A stretch of 32,000 nucleotides of DNA from Gemmata obscuriglobus (GCF_008065095.1 NZ_CP042911.1:8967202-8999201); one strand, 5' to 3'. Numbered from the stretch's first letter, positions 9,092-32,000 are shown. The notes: generated by a model not told the origin, from the letters alone. Made by a program: numbers and translations.

Positions 9092-9370
9092 GACTGCAAC
9101 GAAACAATCGCGCCGGGCCTCATCCTCCAGCCCGGACATCGGCCGGTGCTGCGCCATTCGGCACGGAACGTGTGTGTAAAGTTGATGAGAAATCCCGGTA
9201 TGAACCGGTAGAGAGAGACACCTGGGCGCTTCGATAATATCAAAGCCTGCGAAACGCCCTTTGTCCGCCCCTTTCTTGCTTTCGCCCCGCCCAATTGCGC
9301 CCATCTGTGCTGCGTTCCGACCCCTTCTCAGAGGGTGCGGCTCCATCTCTGTTTTCTCGTAGGAGTTCTT

Positions 9371-10297
9371 ATGCCCTCTCCGGTTCACGCTCCATTCCGT
9401 CGCCGCGCGTTCACACTGATTGAACTACTGGTCGTGATTGCAATTATCGCGATCCTGATCGGACTACTGCTGCCCGCAGTTCAGAAAGTGCGGGCCGCCG
9501 CCGCGCGGATGCAATCGGCCAACAACCTGAAGCAGATCAGCCTCGCGTGCCACAGTTACCACGACGCCAACTCCAAACTGCCCCCGCTGTCGGCCGCCCT
9601 CCCGCCTCCCACCGGTTCGAGCGGCGGACAGGTGTCCGTCTTCTTCTTCCTGCTCCCGTACATCGAGCAGGATAACGTGTACCGGCTGGGTGTGGCCAAC
9701 GGCGGGGCCTGGGAAGGCGGGGCCGCTTCGGCCGGGTCGAAGAAGATCAAGACCTATCTGTCGCCGCGCGACCCCTCGAACCCGCCGGACACCTGGGTGG
9801 AGAGCAACGGCGGCACCTGGGCGCACAACAACTACGCGGCGAACCACGCCCTCTTCGGCGTCCCGGGCGGCGGCAACACGATCTCGAACCTCACCCTTCA
9901 GGGCATCGGCGACGGCACCTCGAACACGGTGGGTTTCGGCGAGCAGTACGCGGTGTGTGGCACCGGCGAAACGGACACCACGTCCGGCTCGCAGTACTAC
10001 CACAAGCTGTGGGCGTACTACATCCCGTGGCGGTGGGAGCGCGGGCCGTACTTCGACACCCGCATCATGAGCAACGACACCATCACCCCGAACGAAGCCT
10101 CCACCGCCGCGACCCCGCAGCTCACGCCGACGGTGCAGAACTGCAACCCGTACCTGCTCCAGGCGATGGACGCGGGCGGGTGCCAGGTCGGGATGATGGA
10201 CGGGAGCGTGCGGCAGGTGAACTCGGGCGTCTCGGGTGCGACGTGGGTTCGCGCGATCTGGCCGCAGGACGGTCTCGTCCTCGGTAGCGACTGGTAA
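9371..10297 (+). CDS. DUF1559 domain protein with prepilin-type N-terminal cleavage/methylation motif
   Basis: ATG at 9371 with AGGAG at 9361-9365. The N-terminus [55 protein letters not shown] is the canonical planctomycete DUF1559 pseudopilin-like leader. It ends with MDGSVRQV. Confidence 0.9.
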
Positions 10298-24509: not shown

Positions 24510-25931
24510 TTACGCCACGGGCATCGGGTCGGCGTGGTAGAGGTGGTGCGGGCGGTTCTCCGCGTCGTGCCACGCCGCCGTCTTCGGCAACCCCAGTGCG
24601 CTATAAATGGTCGCCGCGAAGTTTTCCGGCGTCTGCGGATCGGTCGCCGGGAAGCCGCCGTTCTTGTCCGATGAGCCCACCACGCGCCCTCCGCTCACTC
24701 CGCCGCCCGCGAGCAGAACCGACTGCACCGCGCCCCAATGGTCACGACCCGGCCCCTTGTAGTGTTGCGTCAAGGTGCTGACGCGCGGGGTGCGCCCGAA
24801 CTCGCCCGCCACCACGACCAGCGTTGAACCGAGCAACCCGCGCTGGTCGAGGTCGGCAATCAGGGCGGACAGCGAGCGATCCGTCGGCGGGAGCAATTTG
24901 TCTTTCAGGTGCGGAAACGCGTTCCCGTGCGTGTCCCAGGTCTCGTTGTTGCCCAGGTTCACCTGAACCAGATTCACCCCGGCTTCGACGAGGCGCGCGG
25001 CCATCAGCAACGACCAGCCGAACGCGTTGTTGCCGTACCGCTCCACGTCCCGCGGGTCCGCCCGCTTCAGATCAAACGCCGCCCGCACCCGGGCGTCGGT
25101 GAGCAGGCTCACGGCGTCGGCGCGCGAGCGGTCGAGCGCGCCCGTGCTGGCGGCCTCGGCTAACGTCTTGCGCTGCCTGTCGAGGTGGGCCAGTACGTCG
25201 AGCCGGTCCGCGAACCGTTCCGCCCCGATCCCCTGCGGCAGGCTCAGGTCGGGCAGAGTAAACCCCTTACGCACAGGCTGAAACGGCCGCTGCTGGTGGT
25301 CGAACTCGTACTCGGGGTACGCACCGTACGCCTTCGGCTCGAACGCGCTGGCTTCGAGGAACCACGGGTCGCGGGCGCGTCCCATGACGCCCGCGAACTG
25401 CCCCGGGATCACCCGACCGGCGTTGTGAACGATCTTGTCCGGCAGCACGAGGGCGGGCGGCAGGTTGTTCCGCGCCCGCGTGACCGCACCGGCGATCGCG
25501 GCGAGGCTCGGGTGATCGGTGGGCTGCGGCTTGCTCGGGTTGAAGCCGACCGGCGCGTCCGAGCGGCCGGTGAGCATGATATGGTGCCCCAGCGAGTGGT
25601 CGTTCGACTTGTGCGTCAGCGAGCGCACGACGCACCACTTGTCCGAGCACGCGGCGAGCTTCGGCAGGTGTTCGGTGACGCGCAGCCCGGGGGTCTTCGT
25701 CGCGGTGGTGCCGAACTCGCCGCGGATCGAATCCGGGGCGTTCGGCTTCGGGTCGAAGCTCTCGTGCTGCGCGAGCCCGCCGGAAAGGAACACGTAAATG
25801 ACCGCCCGCGCCCGCGGGCTCGGTTCCGCGCGGAGCGCACTCAACGGCGACATTCCGAGGCCGAGCAGGCCGACGGCGCCGGCCTGGATCGCGTCGCGGC
25901 GCGTGAGGTGAGGATGGGTGAACGGGGACAT
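24510..25931 (-). CDS. DUF1501 domain protein (sulfatase-like fold) with Tat signal
   Basis: Twin-arginine leader HLTRRDAIQAGAVGLLGLG. Also IYVFLSGGLAQHESFDPKP, VVVAGEFGRTPRV and GRDHW, all typical of DUF1501. Confidence 0.9.
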   Translation of the reverse strand: MSPFTHPHLTRRDAIQAGAVGLLGLGMSPLSALRAEPSPRARAVIYVFLSGGLAQHESFDPKPNAPDSIRGEFGTTATKTPGLRVTEHLPKLAACSDKWCVVRSLTHKSNDHSLGHHIMLTGRSDAPVGFNPSKPQPTDHPSLAAIAGAVTRARNNLPPALVLPDKIVHNAGRVIPGQFAGVMGRARDPWFLEASAFEPKAYGAYPEYEFDHQQRPFQPVRKGFTLPDLSLPQGIGAERFADRLDVLAHLDRQRKTLAEAASTGALDRSRADAVSLLTDARVRAAFDLKRADPRDVERYGNNAFGWSLLMAARLVEAGVNLVQVNLGNNETWDTHGNAFPHLKDKLLPPTDRSLSALIADLDQRGLLGSTLVVVAGEFGRTPRVSTLTQHYKGPGRDHWGAVQSVLLAGGGVSGGRVVGSSDKNGGFPATDPQTPENFAATIYSALGLPKTAAWHDAENRPHHLYHADPMPVA

Positions 25932-26269
25932 GGCGGCGCTCTGACAGGTGGGATCGTTCGACTATCCCGGAACCGCACGGCCGTGTCCAGAGGGTAGCAC
26001 GAATCGAACAGCACTTTCAGCGCCGGGTAGCGACCTGTGCTGAACAGCGTGTGACCGCGCAGGGGCAAATTTTGTTCGATCCCGCTTGACGAAAGTCGTT
26101 TTCTGCCGTCCTATTAAGTCACGGCCGCGGCGCCGAAACGTGTGCTCGCCCTGGGTTCCGATCCGGCGCGGATTGGCGACGGAACTTTTCACCGCGATTC
26201 GCGTCCAACGGAAACACGTCGGTTCGGACCGGCTCCGTCAGCGAACACCCGATTCCAGGATTCGCAGCA

Positions 26270-27100
26270 ATGATACGCATCTCCTCTCCGCGGTTACGGT
26301 CCGCCGGCCGGTTCCTGTGTGCGGCGGCACTGGCACTGGTCGTCACGGCGATGTTCGCGCAACTGGCCCAGGCCCAGGACGCCCCGACGCCGGCGAGCGG
26401 CAAGGAGCAGACCGGCACCGGCCTCATCGTGTTCATGCTCGAGTCTCTCGGGTTCGTGTTCGGCATACCGCTGCTACTCATCTCCCTCGCCATGCTCGCG
26501 CTGGTGGTGCTCCTGTTCCTCGACCTCCGCATGGGCTCCGCCATCCCCCCGGGGTTCGTCGACGAGTTCACCGACATTGTGAACAAGCGCAAATTCAAAG
26601 AGGCATTTGAAATGGCGCGGAACGACCCGTCGTTCCTCGGCCAGGTGCTGACCGCCGGCATGAGCCGCCTCCAGTACGGCCTCGAGGACGCCCGCGAGGC
26701 CGCGATGAACACGCTGGAAAGCATCAAGAGCGACAAGGAGATGAAGAACAACTACAACTCGGTGATCGCGACCGTCGGCCCGATGCTCGGGCTGGTGGGC
26801 ACGGTGTGGGGGATGATCCGGTCGTTCTCCGTGCTCGCGACCGCGACCCAGGTGAACCCCTCGGAGTTGGCCAAGGGCATCTCGCACGCCCTCGTGGTGA
26901 CGCTGTTCGGGGTCGCCATCTCGGTGCCCGCGATCTTCTTCAACGCGTTCTACCGGAACCGCATCACTCGCGTAACGATGGACGTGGGCCACATCGCCGA
27001 CGACCTGCTCACGCAGATGTACCACAACTCGAAGAAGGCCGCGGCCCCGCCGCCCGCGACCCCGGCGCCCGCCAACGGCGCCCCCCCGGCGGCGCGCTAG
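26270..27100 (+). CDS. exbB: MotA/TolQ/ExbB proton-channel family protein
   Basis: ATG at 26270. N-terminal signal-like segment RFLCAAALALVVTAMFAQLAQA. Conserved C-terminal core GPMLGLVGTVWGMIRSF...ISHALVVTLFGVAISVPAIFFNAFYRNR. Confidence 0.9.
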   Translation: MIRISSPRLRSAGRFLCAAALALVVTAMFAQLAQAQDAPTPASGKEQTGTGLIVFMLESLGFVFGIPLLLISLAMLALVVLLFLDLRMGSAIPPGFVDEFTDIVNKRKFKEAFEMARNDPSFLGQVLTAGMSRLQYGLEDAREAAMNTLESIKSDKEMKNNYNSVIATVGPMLGLVGTVWGMIRSFSVLATATQVNPSELAKGISHALVVTLFGVAISVPAIFFNAFYRNRITRVTMDVGHIADDLLTQMYHNSKKAAAPPPATPAPANGAPPAAR

Positions 27101-27187
27101 GACGCCCGGAGCGAGAAGTTAAGGCACGGGCCGGCGGCCCGTAACTCTGGCCCCACGCTCCCCTTCACCCCTCACTGGTCGCCGACC

Positions 27188-27667
27188 ATGAGCCACGGCA
27201 GCAGCGACAAGTGCGAACCGAACTTCACCCCGCTGCTCGACCTCGTGTTGCAGCTCGTGATGTTCTTCATGCTGTGCGCCAACTTCGTCATGGACCAGAC
27301 GAACGTGGACATCAAGCTCCCGCTGGCAACGACCGCCAGGGCGATCGAAGCGACCGAGCCTTACGTGCTTTACCTGAACGTGAACGAAAAGGGGCAGGTG
27401 ATCTACCCGCCGGGCGCGCTGGGCAAGGACGGCGAGTCGTCCGACAACCCGGTCCAGCTCGCGATCTGGCTGAAGCGCCGGGCCGACGAGGACCGGCTCA
27501 TTGCCGGCCCCGGTAACGAGGACAAGCCGCTCCGCACGCTCATCGTGCTGCGGGTTCATAAGGCGTGCCCGTTCGAGAAAACGTACCCGGTCATGAAGGC
27601 GTGCCGCTCCGCGGGGTACCAGCGGGTTCAGTTGCGAGCCATCCTCGCCGGAAGCGGTCCGGGCTGA
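27188..27667 (+). CDS. exbD: ExbD/TolR-family biopolymer transport protein (paralog 1)
   Basis: ATG at 27188. The N-terminal motif and TM EPNFTPLLDLVLQLVMFFML is followed by a periplasmic domain (LYLNVNEKGQV...LIVLRVHKACPFEKTYPVMKACRSAGY). Confidence 0.85.
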   Translation: MSHGSSDKCEPNFTPLLDLVLQLVMFFMLCANFVMDQTNVDIKLPLATTARAIEATEPYVLYLNVNEKGQVIYPPGALGKDGESSDNPVQLAIWLKRRADEDRLIAGPGNEDKPLRTLIVLRVHKACPFEKTYPVMKACRSAGYQRVQLRAILAGSGPG

Positions 27668-27763
27668 CGCGACGTCGGCACACGCTCGCCCGCGAACTGC
27701 CGGCACGTGCGGCGCGCGCCCAGCGAATTAACGCGGGTGCGAAACGAGAAATGAGTTGGCCCC

Positions 27764-28291
27764 ATGTTGAGGCACACACGCAAGCGCACCGGCACCGATT
27801 TCGTCGAGCCGGAGCTGCCGATCACGCCCATGCTGGACATGTCGTTCCAGTTACTGGCGTTCTTTATCCTGACGTTCAAGCCGGCCCCGACCGAGGGCCA
27901 GATCATGCTCTCGCTGCCGAAGGAGGACGGCGGGGGACAGGGCGCCCCGAGCCCGGCCGTGGCCGACGCCCCGGTCCATTACATCGTCCGCGTGCTCGCC
28001 ACCGACGACGGCGACATCGGACAAATGACCCTCAGTCAGGAGGGCAGCGCCGCCGAGCCCAAAGAGCTGAAATCCGGGCTCCACAAGCGCCCGGACGGGT
28101 CGGACATGTCCATGCTCGAGGTGTACCAGAAGGAACTTAGCGACCGGGAGCCGCAGAAGCAGCCGATGAAGCTGACGCTCGAACTCCCGCCGCGGCTGTC
28201 GCAGGACAACGTCGTTCGCCTCGTGGACACCGGAACCAGCGCCGGGTTCACCGACATTTCGCCCGTGCCCATCGACAAAAAGAACCGGTAA
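27764..28291 (+). CDS. exbD: ExbD/TolR-family biopolymer transport protein (paralog 2)
   Basis: ATG at 27764. [22 protein letters not shown], with C-terminal [27 protein letters not shown]. Confidence 0.85.
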
Positions 28292-28364
28292 GCTCGGCGC
28301 TCCGATCTCGCCCGAGGCGAAGTGCGAGGGCGACTCGGGGCACACGTTTTGCCCTCCGCATTCC

Positions 28365-28405
28365 GCCCACCGCACTCCCGAACCAGCTCCGGGAGTGCGG
28401 TGGGC
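28365..28405 (+). promoter_or_regulatory. 16-bp perfect stem-loop in the 229-nt exbD2-to-downstream-gene spacer
   Basis: gcccaccgcactcccg at 28365-28380 pairs with cgggagtgcggtgggc at 28390-28405, with a 9-nt loop. No adjacent T-run, so it could be an attenuator, an RNA-processing site or a weak terminator. Confidence 0.45.
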
Positions 28406-28520
28406 CGTTCCGTCCGTCTGATTTCCACTTCAAGAGCAACGGCAGAGGGTGTGGGAACCGGATCGGAACCTGGAACTTCTGCCGGTATTTGTCGTCAAAT
28501 GAGGTGTTGGAGGGGCGCGC

Positions 28521-30059
28521 ATGTCCGCCGGGACCGTGGGAACCGTACCGCTGAAACTCAAGGCCGCCGCGCTCCTCGCGCTCGCGGCGCTGTTCGGCTT
28601 CGCGCCCGGTCCGTTCTCGGCGGTAGACTTCGCGAGCGCCCAGCCCACTAACAACTCAAACACGAGCGGCCAGACCAAGGGGGACGGCGAAAAAGAAACG
28701 CCCAGTGAGGCGGACCTCGACCGGCGCGACCCGGTGCCGGCCGACTCGCCGCGCCGCAAGGGATACGACAAGCTCCGCATCCCAGACACCGACCGCACAA
28801 TCTTCACCGAAATTGTGGACTTCAAACCGGTCGCGGCTCAGGACAAGAACCCGCGCGAGTACGACGCCTGGATCGAGTACGTCCTTCACGCGCGAAAGCA
28901 GAACGCCCGCGACCTCAACGAGCACGGCATCCGCGACCTGGTCCCGCTCGAGTTCGCCAAATTCCCCCGCGCGTACCGAACCGAGCTGATCCGGTTCGAC
29001 GGCAAGCTGAGTTGCGTCCGCCGGTTGGTGCCCCCGCCGCAGTTGCGCAGCTCCGGTGTGAAGGATCTGTACGAAGCCCGCCTCGTGCCGCTCGACGAAT
29101 CGCCGGCCACGCCGGTGTCGGTCGTGTTCACCGACCTGCCGGAGTCGCTCGCCGCGGTGAGCGGCAAGGCGCCCGAGGAGTGGCTCGACGCCGACGGGTG
29201 GGTCACCGCCACCGGGTACTTCTTCAAGACCATGAGCGTCGCGGGCGAACAGGGCAGCGCGGTTGTGAACCTGCCGCTCCTCATCGGGAAGGGGCTCACC
29301 CCGCTCCCCGGGCCGCCCCCGGGAAGCCCGACCCCGACCGCGCTGGACAAGAGCCTGCGGCTCTACAAGTTCATTCAAGACGACGTGAAGATGACCCGCA
29401 CCCGGCCGACCGCGGCCACGTGGCCCGAGGTCGCCGCGTACAACCGGGTCGTGCTGCACGCGGCCCGGTTCTCCGCGGAGGAACTGGAGCGCGACGCGGT
29501 CACCGACGTGCGGTTCGCGGACCTGTTCGAGGAGCCGCGCATCGGGCACCGGCTGTCGCTCGTCAAATTCGAGGGCCGGCTGATTTCGCTGCGGCGCATG
29601 GACTCGAACGACTGGCTCGGCGCCGCCGGCGTGAACCAGCTTTTCGAGGGCTGGCTGATCCCCGATCACGAGCCGCGCGGGAACCCGGTGTGCGTCGTGT
29701 TCAGCGAGCCGCTCGAGGGTGTTGACCCGGCCCGGCGCGTTAACAAGTGGGTGACGTTCGCGGGCTACTCGTTCAAGCGCATGCGGTACGAGTCCGCCGA
29801 GGAGGACGCCAAGAACCCGTCGAAGCACATCGACAAACTCGCCCCGTTACTGATCGGGAAGAGGCCGATCGGGCGCCGCGACCCCGACCACGCGACGCCC
29901 GTGACGTGGAACGCGTTCGCCGAGGGGGCCATCATCGGCGCGGCGCTTTTAATCTTGTGCGCGGGGGTGTTTGCCCTCTGGTACCGCCGCGGCGACCGAC
30001 AGGCCCGGGCGGAAATGGACGCGGTGCGGGGCCGAAATCCGTTCGACCCGGCAGCGTAA
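28521..30059 (+). CDS. hypothetical bitopic membrane protein with an internally duplicated ~145-aa module
   Basis: ATG at 28521 with GGAGG at 28510-28514. N-terminal signal/anchor LKLKAAALLALAALFGF. C-terminal TM AIIGAALLILCAGVFALWY plus a basic tail. Modules at about aa 113-257 and 302-448 share VLHA, R..L..F.G.L...RR, PV.VVF, WVT..GY.FK.M and PLLIGK. No known family recognised. Confidence 0.7.
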   Translation: MSAGTVGTVPLKLKAAALLALAALFGFAPGPFSAVDFASAQPTNNSNTSGQTKGDGEKETPSEADLDRRDPVPADSPRRKGYDKLRIPDTDRTIFTEIVDFKPVAAQDKNPREYDAWIEYVLHARKQNARDLNEHGIRDLVPLEFAKFPRAYRTELIRFDGKLSCVRRLVPPPQLRSSGVKDLYEARLVPLDESPATPVSVVFTDLPESLAAVSGKAPEEWLDADGWVTATGYFFKTMSVAGEQGSAVVNLPLLIGKGLTPLPGPPPGSPTPTALDKSLRLYKFIQDDVKMTRTRPTAATWPEVAAYNRVVLHAARFSAEELERDAVTDVRFADLFEEPRIGHRLSLVKFEGRLISLRRMDSNDWLGAAGVNQLFEGWLIPDHEPRGNPVCVVFSEPLEGVDPARRVNKWVTFAGYSFKRMRYESAEEDAKNPSKHIDKLAPLLIGKRPIGRRDPDHATPVTWNAFAEGAIIGAALLILCAGVFALWYRRGDRQARAEMDAVRGRNPFDPAA

Positions 30060-30174
30060 GGGCCGGAACACGATCTATTGGTTGAGTGTCGCGAACCACA
30101 TCAGCCCACTTGCCGCTTGTCTTGGTGATCCGGCTGCCGCTTGCCGCCCCGGCGCAGCCCCGAGGAGAACGACC

Positions 30175-31794
30175 GTGAGCGAGAAAAAAGTCAAAGAGCC
30201 GAAGGAGGCGGTGATCCGTCGGGTGGAGTTCGCTGAGGAGACCGCTCAGGAGCGGTTCCTGATGAAGTACGTACCGGCGTGCCTCATGAGCGGCGCGATC
30301 CACGCCGGCGTGCTCGGGCTGGCGATCCTGTTCTTCGGCTTCCGAACCGCCGAAACCAAGCAGCCGGACAAGCCGCTCACCACCACCGCCGAGAAGTCGG
30401 ACGAACCCGAGCAGCTGAACCTCACCACCGACGACCTCGGTGTGGACTCCAAAATCGAATCGGCGCTGCCCGAGATCGATCGGCTCGACACGAAGACGGT
30501 CGACGAAAAGGTCACGATGGACAACATCGGCCAGCCGACCGTTCAGGACAACGACCTCCAGGGCGCGACGCTCCCGGGCATCTCGGACATCCGCGAGTTC
30601 ACCACCCCGGGCGTGGCCGGTGACACCGGCTCGTTCATGACGGGCGGCGGCGGCAACGCCGGGGTCGGCAACGCGATGGTCCAGGGCCGGTCGGGGGCGA
30701 CCAAATCGCGCCTGCTGCGCGAGGGCGGCGGCAACGCGGAGAGCGAGCGCGCCGTGGGGTTGGGGCTGGCGTGGCTGGCCAAGCAGCAAAAGGCGGACGG
30801 CGGGTGGACCTACGACCAGGGCCGCAAGGAGGAGCGCGCCGCCGCCACCGGGATGGCGCTGCTGCCGTTCCTCGCGGCCGGCGTGACCCACAAGAAAAGT
30901 AAGGAGCACGAGCAGAAGAACTACGACCAGGTGGTTCAAAAGGGGTTGGGGTTCCTGATGAAGCTGTGCTCCCCGAGCGGGGCCAGCGCCGGGCGCATGA
31001 GCACCGACGTGTACGCCCAGGGCATCGCCACTATCGCCCTGTGCGAGGCGTACGGAATGACCAAGGACCCGGCCCTCAGGCCGTACGCGCAGGCGTCCAT
31101 CAACTTCATCCAGCGCACCCAGGGGCCGAACGGGAGCTGGGGGTACGGCAACACCGGCAACGGCGACACCTCGATCGTCGGCTGGCAGATCCAGGCGCTC
31201 AAAGCCGCGAAGCTGAGCAAGGAACTGGTGGTCGACGACCGGGTGATCCAGAAGGCCGAGAAGTTCCTCGACCTGGCCGCGGCCGGCTCGCGGAAATCGA
31301 TGTACGGGTACGCCGACAACTCCGACGCCCAACCGGGCACCGCGCGGACCGCGGTCGGCCTGCTGTGCCGGTATTACATCTCGGGATGGGGACCGAACAA
31401 GGACGGCATGATCGACGGCGTCAGCGGGCTGATGAAAGTGGCTCCCCTCTCATCGGCCACCGGAAAGCCGCCCGCTGTTAAAGAGATGTACTACTACTAT
31501 TACGCGACTCAAGTCGTCCACTTCTGCGAGGGTGACGACTGGAAAACGTGGAACGAAGGGCCGAGACAAGCCGACGGCACCCGTAAAGGCGGCATGCGCG
31601 ACTGGCTCGTTCAAACCCAGATCCGGGCCGACACGAACGCGGGGAGTTGGGACATCGAAGACGGCTGGATCGGCCGCGGGTGCGGGCGTCTGGGCACGAC
31701 CTGTATGTGCCTCCTGACGCTCGAGGTCTACTACCGCCACTTGCCGCTCTACAAGCGCGGCGCCGACGGTAAGGCGATCCAAATCATCGATTAG
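30175..31794 (+). CDS. TonB/TolA-like N-terminal anchor fused to a prenyltransferase/squalene-oxidase-repeat (alpha/alpha toroid) domain
   Basis: GTG at 30175 with GAGGAG at 30162-30167; the track ORF start at 29971 overlaps the upstream gene. The TM helix ACLMSGAIHAGVLGLAILFF contains SxxxH (S39, H43). A ~130-aa acidic/Gly-rich linker follows. The C-terminal region has AVGLGLAWLAKQQKADGGW, INFIQRTQGPNGSWGY and DTSIVGWQIQALKAA, repeats typical of terpene-cyclase-like toroids. Confidence 0.8.
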   Translation: MSEKKVKEPKEAVIRRVEFAEETAQERFLMKYVPACLMSGAIHAGVLGLAILFFGFRTAETKQPDKPLTTTAEKSDEPEQLNLTTDDLGVDSKIESALPEIDRLDTKTVDEKVTMDNIGQPTVQDNDLQGATLPGISDIREFTTPGVAGDTGSFMTGGGGNAGVGNAMVQGRSGATKSRLLREGGGNAESERAVGLGLAWLAKQQKADGGWTYDQGRKEERAAATGMALLPFLAAGVTHKKSKEHEQKNYDQVVQKGLGFLMKLCSPSGASAGRMSTDVYAQGIATIALCEAYGMTKDPALRPYAQASINFIQRTQGPNGSWGYGNTGNGDTSIVGWQIQALKAAKLSKELVVDDRVIQKAEKFLDLAAAGSRKSMYGYADNSDAQPGTARTAVGLLCRYYISGWGPNKDGMIDGVSGLMKVAPLSSATGKPPAVKEMYYYYYATQVVHFCEGDDWKTWNEGPRQADGTRKGGMRDWLVQTQIRADTNAGSWDIEDGWIGRGCGRLGTTCMCLLTLEVYYRHLPLYKRGADGKAIQIID

Positions 31795-31816
31795 CAGCTC
31801 TTTTCAACCGGCGATG

Positions 31817-31868
31817 GCGACGCGTGGTGCCGTTTGTGCGCAAACGGCACCACGCGTCGCTGCTTTTT
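31817..31868 (+). terminator. rho-independent terminator
   Basis: Perfect 20-bp stem: gcgacgcgtggtgccgtttg at 31817-31836 pairs with caaacggcaccacgcgtcgc at 31841-31860. The loop is tgcg, and TTTTT follows at 31864-31868. It begins 23 nt after the stop at 31794. Confidence 0.75.
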
Positions 31869-32000
31869 AGCCAGATGCGGTCGTTTCTGCCCTCGCTGCC
31901 ACCTCACATCTTATGGCACATAATCCATTATTTCTTAACGACTTACGACTAAGCTATTGGGCTTTACCGGCAACTCAAAAGTGGGTAAAATACTGACTCA

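Follow-up and report, generated by a model that had tools for sequence, protein, structure and literature searches.

What does a Ton-type motor act on in a bacterium that has been reported to lack TonB? The question is raised by a 32,000-nucleotide stretch of the Gemmata obscuriglobus genome (NZ_CP042911.1, 8967202 to 8999201; hereafter the window, with positions counted from its first letter). Between 26270 and 31794, five plus-strand open reading frames (ORFs) encode an ExbB-like protein, two ExbD-like proteins (ExbD1 and ExbD2), and two further proteins of 512 and 539 residues, here named P4 and P5 after ORFs 4 and 5. G. obscuriglobus was described by Speth et al. 2012 (PMC3422733) as being without TonB and as having 0 TonB-dependent receptors; therefore, a motor without its canonical partner would be expected to pair with something else. 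A sequence-only reading of the window had proposed that the motor is partnered here with the two downstream proteins and not with a canonical TonB, and our comparative analyses support this proposal. We consider it probable, though far from settled, that the five genes encode a single Ton/Tol-type machine for force transduction in the envelope, in which an alpha/alpha toroid replaces the C-terminal domain of TonB or TolA.

Homologues were numerous for each of the five genes, at E-values as low as 0, so these are real genes and not chance ORFs. P5 starts at a GTG codon located 8 nucleotides 3' of GGAGAA, and the series is closed by an intrinsic terminator with a perfect 20-bp stem (31817 to 31860) followed by TGCTTTTT, 22 nucleotides past the final stop codon. 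The description of five same-strand genes ending at one strong terminator, made in the sequence-only reading, was thus borne out for every ORF. The motor identity given there also held, as all three proteins exceed the Pfam gathering scores: ExbB scored 84.1 bits against PF01618 (MotA_ExbB; cut-off, 22.9), which places it in the MotA/TolQ/ExbB family, and ExbD1 and ExbD2 scored 61 and 37 bits, respectively, against PF02472 (cut-off, 25.4), which places them in the ExbD/TolR family. No motor ORF reached the cut-off of an NCBIfam equivalog for ExbB, TolQ, ExbD, or TolR (ExbB scored 47.5 and 56.4 bits against the 206 of TIGR02797, exbB, and the 221 of TIGR02796, tolQ), and ExbD2 had no NCBIfam match at all. 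Consequently, the motor proteins are members of their families and not assignable orthologues. Finally, when the remaining large ORFs of the window were all scanned against Pfam, neither TonB_C nor a TonB-dependent receptor turned up, and P4 and P5 had no match to TonB_C (PF03544) at E-values up to 0.1 or 0.001, in agreement with the absence of both from the window as it was first read.

Conservation of gene order, which had been named as the way to check the proposed partnership, came out in its favor. Scanning one genome per species with the P5 family alignment returned 80 loci, which were then analyzed by tblastn, jackhmmer, and profile hidden Markov models; all of them are Gemmatales-type, apart from evidently misbinned metagenome-assembled genomes (MAGs). 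P4 lies directly upstream of P5 on the same strand in 58 of the 58 loci with P4, a pairing tighter than any other association in the data set. The ExbB-ExbD-ExbD genes directly precede P4 in 40 of the 46 loci having enough upstream DNA. Every complete locus contains two ExbD genes and sometimes three, as in 3 of the 40 motor-P4-P5 loci (L007, L013, and L073). The module was found in Gemmata, Frigoriglobus, Limnoglobus, Fimbriiglobus, Urbifossiella, and the Gemmataceae isolate CJuql4; at the loci farthest removed, identity with the window proteins falls to 59 to 64% for ExbB, 30 to 36% for ExbD2, about 30% for P4, and 44 to 47% for P5. All-against-all clustering of the ORFs from 81 loci yielded no family beyond these five that was common to more than 10 loci, and the DUF1501 gene divergent from exbB occurs in no more than 10 close relatives. 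Since no flanking family is conserved, the five genes move as a module through changing surroundings.

When 1.84 billion cluster representatives were searched, the same order was found around three more divergent P5 relatives of metagenomic or MAG origin (P0321, P0401, and P0489; P5 profile E-values of about 1e-101 to 1e-130), with two tandem P5 genes at the P0489 locus. Each locus retrieved has one strongly conserved motor-linked P5 copy. The genome scan, the search of representatives, and a third search from a divergent member returned only Gemmata, Gemmataceae, Planctomycetes, or unnamed sequences. Some loci hold extra copies: cluster-linked P5 genes are in tandem in L031, L071, and L087, and in L003 another two P5 genes lie upstream of exbB. 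Additionally, Gemmatales-type P5 loci with 43 to 68% P5 identity occur in oddly labeled MAGs (L061, L065, L066, L069, L073, L005, and L025), assigned to Alcaligenaceae, Sandaracinobacter, Bacteroidales, Singulisphaera, or Isosphaera. All five genes of the cluster are present in L061, L069, L073, L005, and L025, and the upstream DNA of L065 and L066 is too short to reach the motor genes; these occurrences are probably binning or labeling errors.

The protein expected to take the place of TonB is P5, and its N-terminal region is where the likeness to TonB and TolA is found. P5 is predicted to be oriented with its N terminus in the cytoplasm, where it carries the motif AVIRR, and to cross the membrane once by a helix at residues 34 to 56 (30274 to 30342) that includes Ser39 (30289 to 30291) and His43 (30301 to 30303). 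The sequence P-A-W-x-x-S-G-x-x-H is present in 49 of the 55 cluster-linked P5 proteins; four others have Asn in place of the His, and the remaining two are unreadable ORF calls. Asn can reportedly substitute for TonB His20 in E. coli (Swayne and Postle, 2011). The P5 family runs to thousands of sequence clusters (14,534 at E-values up to 1e-3), and among its best 150 representatives at 50% identity, 62 (about 40%) carry a P/W-x-x-S-x3-[H/N] helix. In an alignment of 36 helix sequences, the Ser is invariant, the His is conserved in at least 90% (otherwise Asn), and a Leu at Ser+11 is moderately conserved. The Ser-x3-His face is the one that binds motors in TonB (Ser16/His20) and TolA (Ser18/His22) (PMC12204202). 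When the P5 family profile was aligned by hhalign with the E. coli TolA helix, Ser and His fell in register with Ser18 and His22 (E-value of 2.8e-5; score, 33.7), above the control helices of ZipA (19.6; E-value of 0.0094), FtsN (12.5), and P4 (15.9), whose E-values ranged from 0.0094 to 0.2. We therefore read the P5 helix as carrying a TonB/TolA-type Ser-x3-His(/Asn) signature, so that the TonB-like anchor of the sequence-only reading amounts to more than a single helix.

Beyond the membrane, a conserved, beta-prone, acid-flanked segment resembling E-K-V-V-x-T-T-x-E-K occupies residues 63 to 72, 8 to 16 residues past the helix. AlphaFold predicts no confident strand there; by its placement, which is that seen in TonB and TolA, the segment is a candidate "motor box." A disordered linker of about 130 residues (57 to 184) follows.

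The head of P5 is of a different kind from the C-terminal domains of TonB and TolA. In the AlphaFold model, a short cytoplasmic N terminus and the helix at 34 to 56 are followed by a low-confidence region at 55 to 184, where the predicted local distance difference test (pLDDT) is below 50, and by a confident (alpha/alpha)6 toroid at 185 to 522, whose C-terminal end reads LEVYYRHLPLYKR. The sole family match of P5 is a subthreshold one to SQHop_cyclase_C (24.4 bits against 26.1; Pfam E-value of 1.7e-5), its NCBIfam scores are far under the cut-offs, and its profile matched squalene-hopene cyclase in the PDB with an E-value of 2e-4. Foldseek returned single-domain squalene-hopene-cyclase-like proteins, GH76 mannanases, AprG, cellobiose 2-epimerases, and the complement thioester domain (TED), with E-values of 5e-5 to 1e-3 and a TM-score to target of about 0.6. 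The toroid bears QW-like Q-x(2-6)-G-[GS]-W repeats and many invariant polar residues, for example in G-D-T-S-I-V-G-W-Q and L-C-E-A-Y-G. These results agree with the terpene-cyclase-like toroid seen in the sequence-only reading. However, no D-x-D-D occurs anywhere in the P5 sequence and there is no CGEQ, the closest string being L-C-E-A-Y-G; thus, P5 lacks the defining features of both a class II cyclase and a thioester domain.

The same head also occurs apart from the anchor. Gemmatales encode many P5-head paralogues with signal peptides (secreted, possibly lipoproteins), some in tandem, for example in L079, L080, L081, L067, L055, L053, L048, and L038. They retain G-R-S-G-A-T-K-x-R-L-L-K-x-x-G-G, the toroid, and the C-terminal L-E-V-Y-Y-R, and are without the cytoplasmic AVIRR motif, the TonB-like helix, and the post-helix segment. 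Because these paralogues carry the head without the anchor, the anchor module of P5 is separable from its head. There are also giant relatives (P0274, P0277, P0281, and P0328; 1481 to 2279 residues) that combine two toroids with PD40 repeats, which are of the TolB-type beta-propeller.

The other protein of the pair, P4, had been described as belonging to no recognized family, and this agrees with our searches: it had no NCBIfam match, its profile matched nothing in the PDB at E-values up to 1, and against Pfam its family gave only scattered matches above an E-value of 0.01, each in one or two members. P4 has a signal peptide at about residues 9 to 35 with an ASA-Q site, followed by some 50 disordered residues, at the end of which lies a conserved D67-x3-P71-x-P73 (D-x3-P-L-P-A-D-like). 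The AlphaFold model (pLDDT, 80.8; predicted template modeling score, 0.71) then shows two repeats, each a helical hairpin with a five-stranded OB-fold barrel, at about residues 90 to 262 and 281 to 446. The repeats are 32% identical to each other (E-value of 2e-17), and the P4 proteins of Limnoglobus and Fimbriiglobus have one repeat and not two. A C-terminal transmembrane (TM) helix at 463 to 489 precedes a conserved cytoplasmic tail ending in R-N-P-F. By Foldseek, the barrels resemble the OB folds of SSB, RPA, POT1, and CST with E-values of about 1e-5, a resemblance that assigns a fold and not a function. Thus, profile searches placed neither P4 nor P5 in a well-characterized family unrelated to Ton/Tol machinery; the placement of both in such families was what the sequence-only reading had listed as contrary to its proposal.

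With regard to the motor, its subunits keep most of the landmarks of their families. In ExbB, the N terminus forms a signal-like helix and there are three TM helices, of which TM2 includes LGLVGTVWGM and TM3 GISHALVVT; LGLVGTV is present in 35 of 40 cluster ExbB proteins, and the threonines of G-T-V and V-V-T are retained. When the T-P-x-x-D motif of the ExbD proteins was tallied over the loci, it corresponded in the window to TPLLDLV with Asp18 in the TM helix of ExbD1 and to TPMLDMS with Asp25 in that of ExbD2. The exception lies in TM3 of ExbB, where GIAEAL has become GISHAL, so that His206 (26885 to 26887) sits at the position of E. coli ExbB Glu176 and TolQ Glu173. This His is found, as [GN]-[IV]-[SA]-H-A-L, in all 35 cluster-linked ExbB proteins with a readable TM3. 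Together with the sub-cut-off equivalog scores, it keeps this protein from being assigned to ExbB or TolQ proper.

In the machine that we propose, ExbB, probably as a pentamer, and a heterodimer of ExbD1 and ExbD2 would assemble into a 5:2 inner-membrane motor driven by protons. P5 would be the force transducer, its single N-in helix docking on the periphery of ExbB through Ser39-x3-His43, as in TonB and TolA, and its beta-prone post-helix segment may engage the periplasmic domains of the ExbD proteins. The disordered linker would carry the toroid head across the periplasm, where the head would bind a ligand on which the action of the motor would pull. P4 would be the obligate partner of P5, anchored by its C terminus with its two OB-fold modules exposed, and is most likely a scaffold or regulator, or else the first ligand of the P5 head.

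Several observations weigh against this machine, and some of them would be expected if the genes were chance neighbors, with the motor energizing an unlinked partner and P4-P5 forming a self-contained, motor-free complex in the inner membrane. Six loci (L011, L031, L049, L051, L084, and L086) have P4-P5 without adjoining motor genes; many P5 paralogues stand alone, and at least 13 of the helix type lie beside neither P4 nor the motor (although 4 of these are too near a contig end for a judgment). The spacer between exbD2 and P4, which is 229 nucleotides in the window, measures at least 200 nucleotides in all loci, so two transcription units are possible, and in this genome it contains a perfect 16-bp hairpin with a 9-nucleotide loop and no T-tract (28365 to 28405). 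Nevertheless, the motor remains directly upstream in 40 of the 46 evaluable loci although the flanking genes all change, and the P5 helix bears the motor-binding signature of TonB and TolA. The hairpin is missing from five of six related loci, including that of Gemmata algarum, which is 96% identical, and we rejected it as a component of the system; in Limnoglobus, the spacer has two unrelated 11-bp hairpins. An Rfam scan of 25800 to 32000 in the window, for a riboswitch hinting at a substrate, gave only chance matches on the two hairpins of that range. Moreover, tonB itself is frequently unlinked from exbBD in other bacteria. We therefore regard chance neighborhood as unlikely. The remaining points against the machine concern its parts and its distribution. 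Of the four positions of the SHLS motif (Ser-x3-His-x6-Leu-x3-Ser), P5 keeps three and misses the last Ser. The alignment of the P5 profile with E. coli TonB, although in register, had an E-value of 0.042 and a score of 15.5; being outscored by the unrelated ZipA control, it is not counted as evidence. Because the TonB match was no better than the controls, the profile evidence is moderate and the weight lies mainly on the conservation pattern. The P5 linker is not proline-rich (5% Pro), and the His in place of Glu in ExbB means that the ion pathway or chemistry of the motor may differ from that of model systems. Since all sampled relatives are Gemmatales-like, the synteny could partly reflect shared ancestry, against which stands the lack of conservation of the flanks.

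Other explanations accept the gene cluster and read P5 differently. It could be a membrane-anchored periplasmic enzyme (a glycan hydrolase, lyase, or epimerase, or a terpenoid cyclase or prenyltransferase) with a catalytic toroid, the motor supplying its substrate or being unrelated. The top Foldseek matches are indeed enzymes, there is the weak sequence similarity to squalene-hopene cyclase, and the toroid has many invariant polar residues. But the structural matches are weak and scattered over unrelated enzyme classes and the nonenzymatic TED, the cyclase Pfam score is under its gathering threshold, DxDD and CGEQ are missing, and an enzyme would leave the TonB/TolA-type helix, the cytoplasmic motif, and the synteny with the motor unexplained, so that we find this explanation very doubtful. 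Alternatively, the P5 head might engage an unrecognized outer-membrane gate for Ton-like import of nutrients or macromolecules, which would explain energy-dependent macromolecule uptake in Gemmata. This is a subcase of the force-transducing machine, differing only in its task, and it draws on the motor with its TonB-like anchor, on the many P5 paralogues per genome, which resemble the paralogy of TonB, and on the energy-dependent uptake of proteins that G. obscuriglobus reportedly performs (Lonhienne et al., 2010). We hold it to be unlikely, as no outer-membrane component lies in or beside the cluster at any locus, the genome is reported to be without TonB-dependent receptors, and the P5 head has no similarity to the C-terminal domain through which TonB pairs, by a beta-strand, with TonB boxes. 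For the proposed machine, we weakly favor instead a Tol-like task of a housekeeping kind, in maintaining the outer membrane or the cell wall, because there is a conserved motor-linked copy, the module includes no outer-membrane gene, toroids are found fused to TolB-type PD40 repeats, and TonB-dependent receptors are reportedly missing from the host. A bolder interpretation, which seems to us distinctly unlikely, is that Gemmatales, which reportedly have neither TonB nor TonB-dependent receptors, replaced the Ton/Tol transducer with a large radiation of toroid-headed TonB-like proteins, with a His-variant ExbB motor and an OB-fold partner, driving a process without a counterpart in model bacteria, such as energy-dependent capture and uptake of macromolecules or the remodeling of the invaginated envelope during budding.

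It is important to consider how the cluster compares with described systems. Its closest published analogue is the family of "force transducers" described in PVC (Planctomycetes-Verrucomicrobia-Chlamydiae) and other bacteria by Williams-Jones et al., Mol Biol Evol 2025 (PMC12204202), in which a transmembrane helix with the SHLS motif is joined by a linker to a domain of the von Willebrand factor A (vWA) type. In PVC bacteria, these vWA-headed transducers lie downstream of a tolQ gene and a heterologous pair of tolR genes (PMC12204202). Like P5, they have an N-terminal helix with a Ser/His motor-binding motif and a globular head unrelated to the C-terminal domain of TonB or TolA. In contrast, the P5 head is an (alpha/alpha)6 toroid and not a vWA domain, the accessory protein is the OB-fold, C-terminally anchored P4 and not a tetratricopeptide repeat (TPR) protein, and ExbB has the Glu176-to-His change. 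The locus had been put forward in the sequence-only reading as the best candidate in the window for an undescribed system. As far as the toroid head is concerned, this stands: toroid-headed proteins are not mentioned in the text of PMC12204202, and full-text literature searches returned no description of a motor-linked, toroid-headed TonB-like architecture. The general idea of a TonB-like anchor with a non-TonB head in PVC bacteria had, however, been published in 2025 (PMC12204202).

The cluster shares with the Ton system a MotA/ExbB-family channel, ExbD-family subunits with a TM Asp, and a partner protein with a single N-in Ser-x3-His helix and a long nonglobular periplasmic spacer. It differs in that neither P5 nor the window has PF03544, the spacer is not rich in proline, there are two ExbD paralogues and the additional P4, and His stands at the Glu176 position of ExbB. 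With Tol-Pal, it has in common the motor family, a P5 helix whose profile aligns best with the helix of TolA, the encoding of motor, transducer, and periplasmic accessory together, and a housekeeping-like conservation of the locus. Unlike Tol-Pal, it has no TolA domain III, its transducer gene comes last, and P4 is anchored in the inner membrane; among its five conserved families there is no propeller (TolB) and no OmpA-like protein (Pal), nor is there a CpoB in the cluster. Residues 185 to 522 of P5 share the fold of class II terpene cyclases, prenyltransferase beta subunits, and the alpha2-macroglobulin/complement TED, and differ from these toroids in being a single toroid, predicted to be periplasmic, fused to a TonB/TolA-like anchor, and below the Pfam thresholds. 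Furthermore, the PADLOC models for Zorya-type and other antiphage defense systems matched none of the five proteins at E-values up to 0.01. At its membrane end, the proposed system would work like TonB and TolA, yet it is a member of neither family.

The features of the locus and its neighbors are collected in Table 1. The DUF7133/HEAT, DUF1559, and DUF1501 neighbors, all of which belong to typical expanded planctomycete families, are conserved with the cluster only in the closest relatives.

Table 1. Coordinates of the five-gene cluster, its terminator, and other genes of the window (aa, amino acids)
Feature	Position	Strand	Match or remark
exbB/tolQ-like proton-channel subunit, 276 aa	26270..27100	+	PF01618, 8.8e-24
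exbD1/tolR-like subunit, 159 aa	27188..27667	+	PF02472, 1.6e-16
exbD2, second, more divergent ExbD/TolR paralogue, 175 aa	27764..28291	+	PF02472, 4.3e-09
P4, 512 aa	28521..30059	+	without Pfam or NCBIfam family
P5, 539 aa	30175..31794	+	100% identity, full length, to GobsT_76000 of Gemmata obscuriglobus
Intrinsic terminator, 20-bp perfect stem, 4-nucleotide loop, TGCTTTTT tail	31817..31870	+	
DUF7133/HEAT/cytochrome c protein, 1023 aa	5970..9041	+	typical expanded planctomycete family
DUF1559 protein	9335..10297	+	N-terminal methylation (pseudopilin-like) motif; typical expanded planctomycete family
Ser/Thr protein kinase, response-regulator receiver, and HD domain fusion, 757 aa	17143..19416	-	
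DUF1501 protein	24510..25931	-	divergent from exbB; typical expanded planctomycete family

To our knowledge, TonB and TolA have until now been the only well-established carriers of proton-motive force to the outer envelope. A vWA head was proposed in 2025, and the alpha/alpha toroid, if our explanation is true, would be a second noncanonical head, which would point to the TonB-type anchor as a portable "power take-off," fitted in the course of evolution with different working heads. An obligate partner and a variant motor accompany the toroid head, whose family comprises the 14,534 sequence clusters mentioned above. Planctomycetes have a diderm envelope, yet they are reported to be without TonB, TonB-dependent receptors, TolB, and Pal. 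The locus points to a so far undescribed variant of the machines by which the outer envelope receives energy from the inner membrane and, if this is true, would offer a genetically testable handle on how planctomycetes energize the processes of their outer envelope.

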